A DNA stretch of 64,000 nucleotides, from the NCBI RefSeq assembly GCF_018350175.1, contig NC_058368.1, positions 14,262,001-14,326,000 of the forward strand, given 5' to 3'. Below are positions 1,900 through 62,336 of the stretch, piece after piece. The stretch comes from Felis catus (taxonomy: Eukaryota). A model generated the notes under the pieces. The model was not told the DNA's origin, searched no databases, and was given only the letters and a program-made list of their open reading frames with translations. Both the position numbers and the translations under genes were made by a program. How positions within the stretch are numbered: the stretch's first letter is position 1; the number at the start of each line of letters is the position of its first letter.

Positions 1900-2424
1900 A
1901 CTCCCTCCCTCGCTTAGTTCATAGAAGTCCAATAGAAGAGACATATTACACGAACCAAATGATTATAGAAATAAAAGATGTAAAGGCAAACTTCGGCAAT
2001 TACTAGGAAAGAAAAGTACAGGGTGCTCTGAAGGAGAGAGTATATACAGCAAAGGATCTTCATTTTAGATTCAGAAGTCAGGGAAGTCTTCTTTAAAGAA
2101 GTTCTATTTGAATTAGGTACTCAAGGAATGAGCAGGGAATCATCAGTAAAGGCTGGGGTATAGAATATTCTAAAGAAAAATATTACAAAGACTCAGAATT
2201 TAGAAATAATAAAATGAACAGAAAGGAGGGTAGTATGTCTAGAACTTACTGAGCACTGGAGATAGGTGTTTGAGATAAGGCCGGATAGTAACATATGAGC
2301 TAGATGATTTAAAGTCTTATAGATCCTGTTAAAGATTCATGACTTTATCCTAAGTGGCATGAAAAGCAGTGAGAGGCTTTGAGCAAAAGAGTCACATGAT
2401 CTGATATATGTTTTAAAAGATCAG
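1900..2424 (-). mobile_element. L2 fragment
   Basis: gactttatcctaag...gagaggctttgagcaaaagagtcacatgatctgatatatgttttaaaagatc resembles the L2 antisense consensus. Confidence 0.7.
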
Positions 2425-3481
2425 TCTGTCTTTTTCTGTATGACTTATTTCACTCGGCATAACACTCTCCAGTTCCATCCACGTTGCTACAAAAGGCCAT
2501 ATTTCATTCTTTCTCATTGCCACGTAGCATTCCATTGTGTACATAAAGCACAATTTCTTTATCCATTCATCAGTTGATGGACATTTAGGCTCTTTCCATA
2601 ATTTGGCCATTGTTGAAAGTGCTGCTATGAACATTGGGGTGCAAGTGCCCCTATGCATCAGCACTCCTGTATCCCTTGGGTAAATTCCTAGCAGTGCTAT
2701 TGCTGGGTCATAGGGTAGATCTATTTTTAATTTTTTGAGGAACCTCCACACTGTTTTCCAGAGTGGCTGTACCAGTTTGCATTCCCACCAACAGTGCAAG
2801 AGGGTTCCCGTTTCTCCACATCCTCTCCAACATCTATAGTCTCCTGATTTGTTCATTTTGGCCACTCTGACTGGCGTGAGGTGATATCTGTGTGGTTTTG
2901 ATTTGTATTTCCCTGATGAGGAGTGACATTGAGCGTCATTTCATGTGTCTGTTGACCATCTGGATGTCTTCTTTGGAAAAGTGTCTATCCATGTCTTCTG
3001 CCCATTTCTTCACTGGATTATTTGTTTTTTGGGTGTGGAGTTTGGTGAGATCTTTATAGATTTTGGATACTAGCCATTTGTCCTATATACCATTTGCAAA
3101 TATCTTTTCCCATTCCGTCGGTTGCCTTTTAGTTTTGTTGATTGTTTCCTTTGCAGTGCAGAAGCCTTTTATCTTCATGAGGTCACAATAGTTCATTTTT
3201 GCTTTTAATTCCCTTGCCTTTGGAGATATGTCAAGTAAGAAATTGCTGCGGCTGAGGTCAGAGAGGTTTTTTCCTGCCTTCTCCTCCAGGCTTTTGATGG
3301 TTTCCTGTCTCACATTGAGGTCCTTCATCCATTTTGAGTTTGTTTTTGTGAATGGTGTGAGAAAGTGGTCTAGTTTCATTCTTCTGCATGTTGCTGTCCA
3401 GTTCTCCCAGCACCATTTGTTAAAGAGACTGTCTTTTTTCCATTGGATATTCTTTCCTGCTTTGTCAAAGATTAGTTGGCC
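2425..3481 (-). mobile_element. Young felid L1, ORF2 C-terminal fragment without 3'UTR or polyA
   Basis: ORFs 2413-2865 and 3083-3379(-) are near-intact ORF2 C-terminus ([37 protein letters not shown]...SEISHTEKDR). Confidence 0.95.
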
Positions 3482-15326: not shown

Positions 15327-16943
15327 GATGTTTGTCTTTCTCTGACTTATTTCACTTAGCATAATACCCTCTAGTTCCATCCACTTGTTGCAAATGGCAA
15401 GATTTCATTCTTTTTGATTGATGAGTAATATTCCATTGTATGTATGTACCACATCTTCTTTATCCATTCATCCAGTGATGGACATTTGGGCTCTTTCCAT
15501 ACTTTGGCTATTATCGATAGTGCTGCTATAAACATTGGGGTGCATGTGTCCCTTTGAAACACTCTATCCCTTGGATAAATACCTAGTAGTGCAATTGATG
15601 GGTCATAGGGTAGTTCTATGTTTAATTTTTTGAGGATCCTCCATACTGTTTTCCAGAGTGACTGCACCAGTTTGCATTCCAGTGCAGAAGGGTTCCTCTT
15701 TCCTGCATCCTCGCCAACATCTGTTGTTGCCTGAGGTGTTAATTTTAGCCATTCTGACTGATGTGAGGTGGTATCTCATTGTGATTTTGATTTGTATTTC
15801 CCTGATGATGAGTGATGTTGAGCATCTTTTCATGTGTCTGTTAGCCATCTGGAAGTCTTCATTCAAAAAGTGTCTTCTCATGTCTTTTGTCCATTTCTTC
15901 ACTGGATTATTTGTTTTTTGGAGATTGAGTTTGATAAGTTCTTTATAGATTTTGGATACTAACCCTTTATCTGATATGTCATTTGCAAATATCTTCTCTC
16001 ATCCCATCAGTTGTCTTTTAGTTTTGCTGATTGTTTCCTTTGCTGTGCAGAAGGCTTTTACCTTGATAAAGTCCCAATAGTTCATTTTTGGTTTTGTTTC
16101 CCTTTCCTCCAGAGACATGTCTAGTAAGAAGTTGCTACAGCTGAGGTCTAAGAGGTGGCTGCCTCTTTTCTCCTCTATGACTTTGATGGTTTCCTGTCTT
16201 ACATTTAAGTCTTTTATCTATTTTGAGTTATTTTTGTGTATGGTGTAAGAAAGTGGTCCAGGTTCATTCTTCTGCAGTCGCTGTCCAGTTTTCCCAACAC
16301 CATTTGCTGAAGAGACTGTCTTTTTTCCATTGGATATTCTTTCCTGCTTTGTCAAAGATTAGTTGGCCATACATTTGTAGGTTCATTTCTGGGTTTTTTC
16401 TTCTGTTCCACTGATATGTGTGTCTGTTTTTGTGCTAGTACCATACTGTCTTGATGATTACAACTTTGTAATACAGCTCAAAGTCGGGAATTGTGATGCC
16501 TGCAGCTTTGGTTTTCTTTTTCAGGATTGCTTTGGCTATTCAGGGTCTTTTCTGGTTCCACACAAATTTTAGGATTGTTTTTTTCCAACTTTGTGAAGAA
16601 TGCTGGTGTTATTTTGATAGGTATTGCATTGAATATGTAGATTTATTTGGGTAGGATTGACATTTTAACAGTATTTGTTCCTCCAATCCATGAGCATGGA
16701 ATGTTTATCCATTTTTTTGTGTCTTCCTCAATTTCTTTCATAAACTTTCTATAGTTTCCAGTGTATAGATTTTTCACCTCTTTGGTTAGGTTTATTCCTA
16801 TGTATTTTATGGATTTTGGTGCAATTGTAAATGGGATTGATTCCTTGATTTCTCTTTCTGCTGCTTTATTTTTGGTGTATAGAAATACAACCTATTACGT
16901 TGATTTTATATCCTGTGACTTTGCTGAATGCATGTATCAGTTC
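15327..16943 (-). mobile_element. Carnivore L1 ORF2, 3' segment of a 5'-inverted element
   Basis: ORFs 15371-15667 and 15603-15902(-) match the ORF2 C-terminus; continuous L1 sequence to 16943. Confidence 0.95.
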
Positions 16944-30600: not shown

Positions 30601-31206
30601 GCTAATATCTTTTCTATCAAAATCATTACGTTTAGCACTCAGGTTAGATATGTGCTGGGTCTTTTGTAATTTCTCAAAAACAAAGATATGGACGTTATTA
30701 ACAGTACTCTTTCTTTTGAGACTTACTTATTTGAGGCCACACACAAGAAAATGCAAGATACAGTATTTTAAGAACTACTAAATTCAGTGAAGTGAATTTT
30801 CCTTTTTTCCCCCAGTCTAGCAACTAGTGAATCTGCAATGTTTGCTAAACTACTAGAATAAACAAATAATTAGGGAATCCATGCCCACAGAAAAAAGGAA
30901 TTAAGGCATTAAATATTACCTGTCCTGTCAGAGGGGCAGGCGGGGGCGGGGGGCGAGGGGGGGGGTTGTTGGAGGGAGTGGGTCACAGGCTGAAGTTCAG
31001 GAAGAATGGTTCTTGTGAAGCAAGGGTCTGGGGTGGGGGATGGTAATGCTATTTTAGAGATTATAAACTTCCTGAAAACCAAGATCACCTAGTAAGTACC
31101 TTGTGCTGATAGGTATCTTGGGTGTAGTGGGTCCTTAAGGATTTTTTTAGAAAGTTGTTTTTTGAATCAGAGTAGCAAAGGAAGCACCATTTTAAATCAT
31201 AGATTT

Positions 31207-36867: not shown

Positions 36868-37105
36868 TATTTGAATATTTTACATAATTCCATTTTAATT
36901 TATATATCATCTTTCTAGCTATACCTCTTTGCATTATATTTGTTTTAGTTTGACTGCTTTTAGCTTTTATTTGAATATTTTATTTTGAATATATATATTT
37001 TATTTGAATATTTTACATAATTCCATTTTAATTTATATATCATCTTTCTAGCTATACCTCTTTGCATTATATTTGTTTTAATTTGACTCCTTTTAGCTTT
37101 TATTT
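36868..37105. repeat. 105-bp near-tandem duplication with 28-bp spacer
   Basis: 36868-36972 versus 37001-37105, 2 mismatches. Confidence 0.95.
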
Positions 37106-48050: not shown

Positions 48051-48938
48051 CAGTTAATTTTAGTGTTTTTCTTTGATCTTGGTTAGATTAAAAGTCATGC
48101 ACAGAAGTCCTGACCCTAGTAATTACCACCAATTCTTTAATAAAGTAGAAATTCAGATTCTCACTGTATTTGATGTGTATAGTTAGCAAAATATTCCTTT
48201 GTTCTTTTTGCTCTTATCTCTGTTCCATCGGGTAATTTTTGTTACCAAATACTGAGTAACCAATTAACAGTACAGTCATGCTTTTTCAGGTAAATTCAGT
48301 TTTCTCCCTAGCTTATGAAGGTGATCCATTCCTGGGAGGGCAGGAAGGAACTGTAGTATATTCTCATGAGCCTAAAATAGAATTATTAAAAATTTTGTGG
48401 AGAAAAACTATGATTTCCTGAACTCTATTTATGCTAAAATAATACCAAATCTCATTTAATGAACACCATTACATTCATAGTAACATTAATATCATAATAC
48501 AGCCTAACTGGTGATCTTCTCTTGATTAATTACTGGCTGTTTACCTACTCCTTTCCAGCACTTATGCGGCTTACAAAACCACACTCATGAACAAAACATA
48601 CATATGGTACTCTATGTTTCTATACTCAGTCCTAAGAGGTAAAAACAGAATTACAGGACTAAAATAAATAAACAAATGGAAATAATACATACGATATCAC
48701 TTTCACCCTCCTAGCTGACAAATGAGAGGTATCAAGCATGACATTATCAATGCTAAAAACTCACAAGTCCAAACAGAACTTCAGCTCAGCATGACCCCCC
48801 TGTACCACTTTGGTGATGCTTGTACAGCATCACATGCACATGTTCACCTGGACACCTGCTCTGCAACTGCAGGGAGACTAAATCAGCCCTCCTTCATGAA
48901 AGATGTGTTTGTAAACCTAACTCAGGACATTAAATGAA

Positions 48939-49099
48939 TATTTTTGTTTATGGTATAGGAGAGTGGTCCAGATTCATTATACTGGAATTTGAAATGGAAG
49001 GAGTGATAGAGGAACAATTTAAAGACTCTGCGGTCTTGTATATTGATGAATTTCAGTGGTAAAACAGCGAAGAACATGCTAAGTGAGAATAAAAGGAAA
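48939..49099 (+). repeat. 161-bp dispersed copy of 50608-50768, flanked by an 18-bp direct repeat
   Basis: Ungapped, 5 mismatches; aaacctaact(c/t)aggacat at 48913-48930 and 49097-49114. Confidence 0.95.
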
Positions 49100-49298
49100 C
49101 CTAACTTAGGACATGGAAAATATACTTATCTAACGAAGTGTATCACACAGTACAATTTTTCATCCTGCTTACAAATTATTAATAACAGTCATTTCTGGAG
49201 TTCTTCTTAAAAACTTAGTGCAGTGGTCTCTTGTTTTTCTGGAGTGGCTCACAGGTTGTAGAAGAATATGGCAAAGTATAGTACATACACTGAAATTT

Positions 49299-50646
49299 TA
49301 TTTTTTTTTAGTTTCAATTTTTATAGAAGCATAGTTGGTATACGTGTTACATTAGTTTTGGGTGTACAACATGGAGATGCAAAAAGTCTGTACACTATGC
49401 TGTGCTCACCACAAGTGTCACTACCATCTGTCGTAAAACTCTACTACAATACCGTTAACTATATTCCCCAGGCTGTACCTTTTATCCCCATAACTTATTC
49501 ATTTCATAACTGGAAGCCTATATTTCCCACTCCCCTTCACTCATTTTGCCCCCATCCCCCTCCCCTCTGACAACCACCAGTTTATTCTCTGTATTTATGG
49601 GTCTCTTTTTGCTTTTTTGTTTGCTTGCTTATTTGTGTTTTAGATTCCACGTATAAATAAAATCACATGGCATTTGTCTTTCTCTGTTTGACTTATTTCA
49701 CCTAACATAATGCCATTTCGGTCCACGTTGTCACAAATGGCAAGCTCTCCTTTTTATACCTGAGTAATATTCTGTTATACATATATAATATATAAAGAAT
49801 ACATTCTGTATGATATATATTATATCCTCTTTGTCCATTCATCTGTCACTGGACACTTGGGTTGCTTCCTTATCTTGGCTATTGTAAACGCTGCAATAAA
49901 CAGAGGGGTGCATATATTTTTTGAAACACTGTTTTCATTTTCTTTGGGTGAATACCCAGTAGTGAAATTACTGGGTCATATGGTATTTCTAATTTTTAAT
50001 GTTTTGAGGAAATTCCATACTGTTTTCCATAGTGGCTGCACCAGTTAACATTCCCACTGACAGCGCATGAGGCTTCCTTTTCCTCATTCCTCACATTGTC
50101 ACCAACACCTGCTATTTCCTTTCTTTTTGATTGCAGCCATTCTGACAGGTGTAAGGCGATCTCGTTGTGGTCTTGACATGCACTTCCCTGATGGTTAGCA
50201 ATGTTGGGCGTCTTTACATTTGTGTTGGCAATCTGTATGTCTACTTTGGAAAAATGTTCAGTTCCTCTGCTTATTTTTTAATCATGTTATTTGTTTTATT
50301 GGTGTTCTGTTGTAGAAGTTCTTTATATATTTTGGTCAATATACCCTTTCTTGGATGTATCATTTGCAAATATCTTCTTCCATTCAGTAGGTTGCCTATT
50401 CGTTTTGTTAGTGGTTTCCTCTGCTATGCAAAAACCTTTTATTTTGGTGTAATCCTAATTATTTTTGTTTTTCTTTCCCTTGCCAGAGGAGACATAATGA
50501 AAAAAAAATGTTGCTAGGCAGCTGTCAGAGAACTTACTGCTTAAGTTTTCTTCTATAGTTTTTATGGTTTGAGGTCTCACATTTAGACCTTTAATCCAGT
50601 TTGAGTTTATTGTTGTTTATGGTATAGGAGAGTGGTCCAGATTCAC
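49299..50646 (-). mobile_element. 5'-truncated carnivore L1 with 3'UTR and T-tail
   Basis: T-tail, 3'UTR and ORF2 end present; degenerate TSD tacactgaaattt (49286-49298) / tatactggaattt (50647-50659). Confidence 0.9.
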
Positions 50647-50886
50647 TATACTGGAATTTGAAATGGAAGGAGCGATAGAGGAACGATTTAAAGACTCTGT
50701 GGTCTTGTATATTGATGAATTTCAGTGGTAAAACAGCGAAGAACATGCTAAGTGAGAATAAAAGGAAAGGAGTATATTTATCCATTTATTATATATGTTT
50801 TGCTATCAGAAAATATCTTCAGCACCAAGAATATTACTAACAAGGGATAAGTGCTCAGTAAATATCCTTTTGAATGAAAACATTGA

Positions 50887-60585: not shown

Positions 60586-62109
60586 AATTTTGACACACTC
60601 TTAAGGAAAATCTGTATAGCAAGTTTTTAGCAGGGTCTTCCTTAAACCGCTACGATTAGTCTGTATTTGTAAGGATAGATACTGTCCTATTTTAAATTCA
60701 CAGAGGTACCTGTAACCATTATTCTTTGGCAATCTTATTTTGAATGAAAAATAAAGTTTTAATAATTATGATGTGTAGAAAAACAAGTGTATTCAAATAT
60801 ACTTCAAATGCTTATAATTTTAATATTCTCTTTATATATCCCTTACCTTGTTATATTCTATAACAATTAAGTTGTGGAAAACAAAATTGGATAGCCGGCC
60901 GCAAAATCCAAAAAGTTTTTCAAAAGTGTATTACTATTCTCAATGACTACATGTCTATAGGTTTTCAAGGTGAAGAATTGGCATAATAAATTCATTGACT
61001 ATTCAAAAACGTAGTATGTCCTAGATATTGTACTAGAGATATAATGATGAGCAAAACATATACAGTTCCTGCTTTAATAAAATGCGGTATTCTTTTACAA
61101 TAAAATAGCAAAATAAAAATGAAATCAAATCTTCTATGAAAGCATTTTATGTGTTTTTATGAATAGTGCTGTTCAAGAACATTAGAATATTATCTCTTGA
61201 GTATATTACTCCAAATACTAGAGAGAGAGAAAAACAGACTTCTCAGACAGTGGCTTTTATCACCAATGGTTATTGAAATTGAATTGAAAACAAAAATTAT
61301 ATTGTGAAACATTCCATTGATATACAATGAACAGATTTCAGTAGTTTCTGAAATATCTCATGGATTTTTAATATTAGTTTAGAGCATAACATGGTTTAGA
61401 CAGTGTTACCCAGTGAAGGCCGTAATTGTTAATGGTTTATATTAGCTGAAAGCAGTAAAATCATCCAAGGACTCTGTTAGTGTTAGAATAATAATTTACC
61501 AAGACAATTACCACATACTGGAATTTTTTGCAGCTCTAATTCAGTATTATTAATAATGGATAAAATTGCACTTTTCTCAGGTTGCTGTGGGCAGCAGGGA
61601 ATTATTTCAATGAATATTTCAGCACATTATTTTAATCATTGTTCCACCAAATCCAAGCAGGCAATATTTTATGGTTCTTAATTCAGTCTACTAAGAAACC
61701 ATGGTCATTAAATTGCAAACTATTTGTAGTGAGGTCTATCCTGTGATTTACAAGCCTTGTTAAAGACAGTGTAAAAGAAGGAAAACTGTGCCATTAATAC
61801 TTGTAATTTGATGCTGCATTTGTTACTGAACTCCCCATGATTAATGTTTTCAGTAGAAAGAAGAACATTGTAGAGAAAACAGAGCTGAGTATTACAATGC
61901 TTAAAATATGAGAATGTTACTCTTTCAAGTTTTGGTCATTTGGACAGGAAATACGTATGTAAACACAATCGTAAAACATAAATATCTCAAAAATCATCTT
62001 AATTTTCCATTGAGACTAAAGAAATAAAGCCTTAATGTTATGTAAAAAAATATATTTCCAGTTATGCATTGTTGTTAATAGTGCCTACTGTTTATTTCCT
62101 CATTCCTAG

Positions 62110-62234
62110 CCAATTGCATGATTTCTGGCGTTTGGATTACTGGGAAGATGATCTTCGTCGAAGGAGACGATTTGTTCGTAATGCGTTTGGCTCCACTCAT
62201 GCTGAAGCACTGCTCAAAGCTGCAGTAGAATATG
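62110..62234 (+). CDS. NBEA: Internal coding exon of neurobeachin (125 nt; phase-2 start, phase-1 end)
   Basis: Translates (S)[41 protein letters not shown](G). This matches my recollection of NBEA; the paralog LRBA reads ..[30 protein letters not shown]. Polypyrimidine tract and acceptor tttatttcctcattcctag end at 62109; donor gtcagt at 62235-62240. Confidence 0.95.
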
Positions 62235-62336
62235 GTCAGTACCAATACCTCTTACACAGCACTTCCCTGGATACGATGGGACTCTTTGTGGTCGAAAATT
62301 CTTTTTTTTTCACTAGCATTTAAAATTCAGCATGTC

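Follow-up and report, generated by a model that had tools for sequence, protein, structure and literature searches.

How did a 161-bp piece of an intron come to stand a second time upstream of its native place, between two copies of a short target sequence, and was it copied from DNA or from RNA? The initial annotation of this locus favored reverse transcription by L1 of pre-mRNA from the host gene and gave DNA copying at a staggered break as its alternative. We found that the alternative is the better account, because the event matches the class of repair-mediated duplications (RDs) in size, distance and junction type. That is, the event was probably a single repair-mediated duplication from a nearby DNA template, and reverse transcription of the pre-mRNA is a minority reading. 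The probabilities expressed here for the competing readings are our judgement and were not computed. "The window" is the whole stretch of DNA that was analysed.

We realigned the two copies. Positions 48939-49099 match 50608-50768 without a gap at an offset of 1669, with 5 mismatches in 161 positions (upstream/downstream copy: 48943/50612, 48977/50646, 49004/50673, 49016/50685 and 49031/50700), and the match ends sharply on both sides. Four CpG sites are present in one copy or the other, and three of the five mismatches fall in them. The gap between acceptor and donor is 1,508 bp. An 18-mer brackets the upstream copy, with one mismatch between its two occurrences. The parts, in order, are:

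48913..48930, + strand: left copy of the target duplication, 15-18 bp (18 including AAA), with one mismatch relative to the right copy.
48931..48938, + strand: 8-nt filler without an identifiable template.
48939..49099, + strand: inserted (acceptor) copy, 161 bp, made up of 39 bp of an L1 5' end, that L1's 13-bp target site duplication (TSD) and 109 bp of unique flank.
49097..49114, + strand: right copy of the target duplication, whose first three nucleotides, AAA, are microhomology with the end of the donor.
50608..50768, + strand: donor segment in its native position across the L1 5' junction.

The AAA at 49097-49099 is common to the end of the inserted copy and the right target duplication, and the length of the TSD is therefore given as 15 to 18 bp. 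The copy pair, the bracketing repeat, the filler, the shared AAA and the lack of poly(A) had all been annotated before, and each was recovered on realignment; the one refinement is the range of the TSD. The bracketing repeat is unlikely to be chance: when 161-bp placements were drawn at random in the window, 1 of 600 was flanked by an 18-bp repeat with at most one mismatch, and 2 of 600 by a repeat of 15 bp or more. The exact 8-mer of the filler occurs 12 times in the window (both strands), so no template can be assigned to it. There is no poly(A) tail at the junctions of the inserted copy.

A genome search speaks against a multi-copy repeat. The unique 121 bp (50650-50770) have two matches in the 2.43-Gb assembly, in a search that skips very common words. 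The multi-copy portion is the first ~46 bp only, which is the L1 part (38 of the 40 matches scored, out of 169 candidates).

The site lies within an intron of about 64 kb that is flanked in family searches by DUF1088 exons on the + strand. On the + strand, the match to positions 39-94 of the DUF1088 model stops shortly ahead of the window, and the model continues in the next exon:

62108..62245 (ends approximate), + strand: next NBEA exon, DUF1088 model positions 95-140, which fixes the direction of transcription.

DUF4704 exons are found upstream of the site and BEACH exons downstream, all on the + strand. We assign the gene to NBEA because one BEACH exon matches neurobeachin (PDB 1MI1, E 1.4e-33) better than LRBA (E 7.7e-31). 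By these exon matches, the host gene is NBEA, transcribed on the + strand, with the inserted copy in sense orientation, in agreement with the initial annotation. The nearest exon found is 13 kb from the inserted copy. The exon scans also showed a short GC-rich patch (about 65%) at 30920-31042 amid the AT-rich intron.

The direction of copying can be read from the L1 between the two copies:

49286..49298, no strand given: left-hand TSD (13 bp) of the older L1, with two mismatches relative to the right-hand one.
49299..50646 (ends approximate), - strand: an old L1 truncated on its 5' side (ORF2 end plus 3' UTR), antisense to NBEA; it matches ORF2p and is ~70% identical to each of two further L1 copies in the window.
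50647..50659, no strand given: right-hand TSD of that older L1, which was copied along into the insertion.

Two minus-strand frames of this L1 match human ORF2p at residues 957-995 and 1177-1222, with E values between about 1e-6 and 2e-5. Between the further L1 3' fragments, at 2424-3481 and 15330-16368, identity is 83%, and either one compared with the L1 at 49299-50646 gives ~70%. In the downstream copy, the L1 5' end and the L1's TSD stand in native continuity, and this copy is therefore the donor. The upstream copy is the acceptor, because there an orphan 39 bp of L1 stands inside a separate TSD. Read from this arrangement, the duplication is younger than the neighboring L1, and the donor and the order of events are as the earlier reading had them. 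At both mismatches within the L1 part, the inserted copy retains the base of the two other L1 copies, and two CpG decays are private to the inserted copy. Changes have thus accumulated in both copies, which argues against an assembly artefact.

The two copies differ by 3.1% (95% interval 1.0-7.1%). Felid substitution rates are perhaps lower than the rate used here, in which case the event is older. At 2.2e-9 per year, the rate given by Pace et al. 2009 (PMC2671141), the event is about 7 million years old (2-16). The inserted copy has since decayed like neutral intron. It shows no sign of function and is a deep-intron repair scar.

The structure would be explained by a short series of steps. 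The event would start from a staggered break in the germ line at 48913-48930, or from a stalled fork that switched template and returned 15-18 bp early. One 3' end may have paired through 3 nt (TTT on AAA, 50766-50768) with DNA that lies 1.7-1.85 kb downstream in the same chromatid or its sister, and about 160 nt would have been copied from that DNA before release. The released end would have been joined to the other end of the break with the 8-nt filler, and fill-in would have doubled the target.

The event belongs to an already described kind of repair scar, with a target duplication that is longer than usual. Pace et al. 2009 reported 824 human RDs with a mean of 162 bp and one donor within 5 kb; donor distance peaks near 1.2 kb, and 753 of 1,136 duplicons are less than 3 kb away (PMC2671141). 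Among the 39 proximal RDs inspected there, poly(A) was absent in all 39 and a TSD was present in six; junctions had microhomology, filler or a deletion, and the combination of microhomology, TSD and filler is a listed class (2/39). Carnivores have RDs as well, with 192 reported in dog (PMC2671141). The event in NBEA resembles these in having one donor less than 5 kb away, a length of ~160 bp, one junction with microhomology and the other with filler, no poly(A), and the TSD of a minority of RDs. In the terms by which RDs are defined, the insertion is at least 50 bp long (161 bp plus the 8-nt filler), has one other genomic copy (the two matches of the unique 121 bp), has its donor at a distance between 50 bp and 5 kb (the gap of 1,508 bp), has no added poly(A)/(T) of 5 bp or more, and has 3-nt microhomology and 8-nt filler at its junctions.

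There are also differences. The acceptor lies in unique sequence, and those of Pace et al. lie inside a transposon, which was their search handle; the host is a felid, and theirs were primates or dog (PMC2671141). The TSD is 15-18 bp, and the six TSD-bearing proximal RDs in their Table S1 have TSDs of 4, 5, 6, 9, 10 and 13 bp (PMC2671141). That the TSD here exceeds all six in their inspected proximal set counts against a DNA template. The same is true of the side of the microhomology and the template strand, both of which are as one would expect of target-primed reverse transcription of the NBEA transcript.

Nearby "doublets" attributed to Thomas et al. 2004 are reportedly short, local, non-tandem duplications on the same strand with about 1 kb spacing. 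They are said to be identical pairs of under 100 bp, and the present event is longer.

We compared the target with local sites of L1 endonuclease. There are 58 SINE heads in 264 kb (the window and stretches L005-L024), 30 of which have a detectable TSD. These 30 sites can serve as a local model for L1 endonuclease sites in the cat genome. Their TSDs are 11-21 bp long and the sites have a TT/AAAA-like consensus. A TSD of 15-18 bp fits an L1 cut, since it is within this range and 17 of the 30 are between 15 and 18 bp; TSDs made by ORF2p are reported at 12-18 bp (PMC11702581). The T/AAA core is present in 19 of 30 SINE sites and is expected in about 6% of random 3-nt microhomologies. The target itself, GT/AAACC, scores below 30 of 30 local SINE sites, and 6.6% of positions score equally well; the scoring matrix derives from the very 30 sites that were ranked and so favors them, and the target has had time to mutate. 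G at -2 is found in 2 of 30 SINE sites and C at +4 in 0 of 30, and the C is present in both copies of the TSD. The bottom strand reads GTTT/AC, compared with 5'-TTTT/A-3' for class 1 templated sequence insertion polymorphisms (TSIPs).

Long target duplications need not be made by L1, as another locus in the cat genome indicates (L025:1738-2141; G000:C1, about 9.28 Mb). There, two inverted local copies (200 bp at 97.5% and 143 bp at 93%, with donors on either side) lie inside a 33-bp target duplication (88% identical) that is GC-rich and has no TT/AAAA site. Taken together, the evidence is mixed, and whether L1 endonuclease made the break in NBEA is about an even call, tilting if anything slightly toward no. 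A cut by L1 would not imply an RNA template, since ORF2p is stated to be able to use DNA templates (PMC11702581).

The reading that survives best next to DNA copying is that ORF2p cut the target, that internal priming on nascent NBEA pre-mRNA took place at the AAA 1.85 kb downstream, and that ~160 nt were reverse-transcribed and resolved like a 5'-truncated, tailless insertion. We consider this unlikely. In the top strand, whose sense is that of the NBEA transcript, the AAA at 50766-50768 pairs with the bottom-strand 3' TTT, and this geometry fits an RNA or a DNA template. Sense polarity favors RNA by a factor of two, being a one-in-two coincidence with a DNA template. The L1-typical length of the TSD, on which the initial annotation relied together with sense polarity, also holds, and the T/AAA core is present. 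The A-rich 3' end that it added as a third argument gives just 3 nt of pairing, and the cut site is a poor one for L1 endonuclease next to the 30 SINE sites. Primer and donor pair at 3 of the last 4 bases and 1 of the next 6 (4/10), which is poor pairing under the snap-velcro rule (PMC4014453). The copy itself has no splice junction, no tail and no RNA edit, only its sense polarity. Between an AATAAA at 49088-49093 and the last base of the insertion there are 6 nt, not 10-30, and hexamers of this type number 141 on the + strand of the window.

Tailless copies of RNA do exist. Noll et al. 2015 list 2,402 human retropseudogenes that were internally primed and have no tail (PMC5322556), and sheet 2 of Table S1 of Pace et al. 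has insertions without a tail whose donors are distant and whose TSDs are 10-17 bp long (PMC2671141). In addition, duplication rate tracks L1 activity according to Pace et al. (PMC2671141). The event in NBEA is like the tailless retropseudogenes in having a TSD (8-35 nt in theirs), no tail, and an A-rich 3' end in common with the target. In contrast, those derive from abundant, dispersed source RNAs, with a TT/WAAAAWW target consensus and longer pairing (PMC5322556), whereas here the donor is local, the pairing is 3 nt, and the target is GT/AAACCTA, with a C at +4 that none of the 30 SINE sites has. Class 1 TSIPs (Onozawa and Aplan 2016) are also templated non-L1 insertions, with a TSD of at least 5 bp (15-18 bp here), but they carry a tail of 10-40 A that follows a poly(A) signal by 10-30 nt, and their donor is distant (PMC5110952); all of this is absent here.

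Other observations also weigh against an RNA template. Distance and size are central to the DNA-repair class, and the RNA of a 64-kb intron would give no reason for that distance. Five of the six TSD-bearing proximal RDs in Table S1 of Pace et al. are outside RefSeq genes (PMC2671141). Locally templated segments in L1 insertions are of a similar kind, in that a nearby genomic piece of <250 bp is captured, and they are ascribed to DNA-templated synthesis or end processing (10.1101/2024.08.27.596794, PMC11702581). Those segments accompany insertion of an L1 or mRNA and mostly come from within 15 bp; in NBEA neither a new L1 nor a tail is present, and the donor lies 1.5 kb off.

A fraction of 295/824 is roughly the genomic share of introns. 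It is also the fraction of RD acceptors that are intronic (PMC2671141), and the class thus has no evident need for transcription.

It is conceivable, although improbable in our judgement, that a subset of the local duplications with 12-20 bp TSDs now filed as DNA repair consists of cis retrocopies that L1 made from nascent intronic RNA of the host gene, primed without poly(A), and that the NBEA locus is one of these. If so, there would be a transcription-dependent route to local duplication. Should TSD-bearing local copies prove to be polarized to the transcribed strand, it would mean that L1 copies nascent germ-line pre-mRNA into its own gene; a single locus cannot show this. Look-ups of terms in the main text of Pace et al. 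(PMC2671141) found no transcriptional-strand test of RDs, and none is evident from titles or abstract starts among the searchable papers that use the phrase "repair-mediated duplication". By title or abstract start, no paper shows tailless copying by L1 of local germ-line pre-mRNA, in a search that most of the subscription literature lies outside. No matching event was seen in passages of PMC13174262, PMC12481690, PMC10191854 and PMC10415145.

A history in two steps is another candidate. A 1.85-kb tandem duplication of 48913-50768 (junction AAA) would have been followed by a deletion of ~1.5 kb in the first copy, leaving 18 bp at the start of that copy and 161 bp at its end, and the apparent TSD would be a remnant. 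These steps yield the present sequence exactly, NBEA is rich in tandem duplications (three loci in the 264 kb), and the divergence of the 18-mers (1/18) and of the copies (5/161) is compatible with a single age. Still, we regard this history as very unlikely: it needs two events, the end of the deletion would have to fall within ~20 bp of the start of the duplication (a coincidence of roughly 1-2%, by our estimate), and the left 18-mer is not continued by further similarity to the right flank.

The least credible account, one that we all but dismiss, is an artefact of assembly or a dispersed repeat taken for a local copy: the case does rest on assembled sequence, but the copies have five differences with changes on both sides (the inserted copy has the base of other L1 copies at both mismatches inside the L1 part, and two CpG decays of its own), the unique part has two genomic matches, and there is no N in the 64,000-nt window.

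Two candidates were rejected. L1 3' transduction, which would bring along sequence from beyond the 3' end of a source L1 together with poly(A), does not apply: what was copied lies across the truncated 5' end of an L1 on the minus strand, runs in the opposite sense to it and has no poly(A). A dispersed repeat was set aside on the two matches of the unique 121 bp, with multi-copy sequence limited to the ~46 bp of L1.

We scanned 264 kb of NBEA for other local copies. The scan took in the window and 20 stretches of 10 kb, each scanned alone, and pairs that cross a border are missed. It gave 120 local pairs. A filter (at least 40 bp, at least 80% identity, and at least one copy less than 60% covered by dispersed repeats) left five rows: four that are tandem or near-tandem, and the event described here. 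There were no further non-tandem local copies in the 264 kb after the filter, and hence no events to orient for sense bias. One event per 264 kb of NBEA is in line with the density of RDs given by Pace et al., 0.2-0.6 per Mb of transposon DNA (PMC2671141). The locus has more weight as a seed for a class-level test of strand polarity than it has alone, and the inserted copy could serve as a presence/absence marker in felids.

The scan also turned up duplications of another form. A near-tandem duplication at 36868-37105 (105 bp, 98% identical, offset 133) has a 28-bp spacer that looks as if assembled from short pieces of the start of the unit (TGAATATTTTATTTTGAATAT...), a pattern that slippage or repeated re-priming would leave. 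An upstream NBEA intron holds three tandem copies of a ~140-bp unit (L019:8272-8679; 88-94%), as well as a tandem pair that is perfect over about 75 bp (L019:1246-1395).
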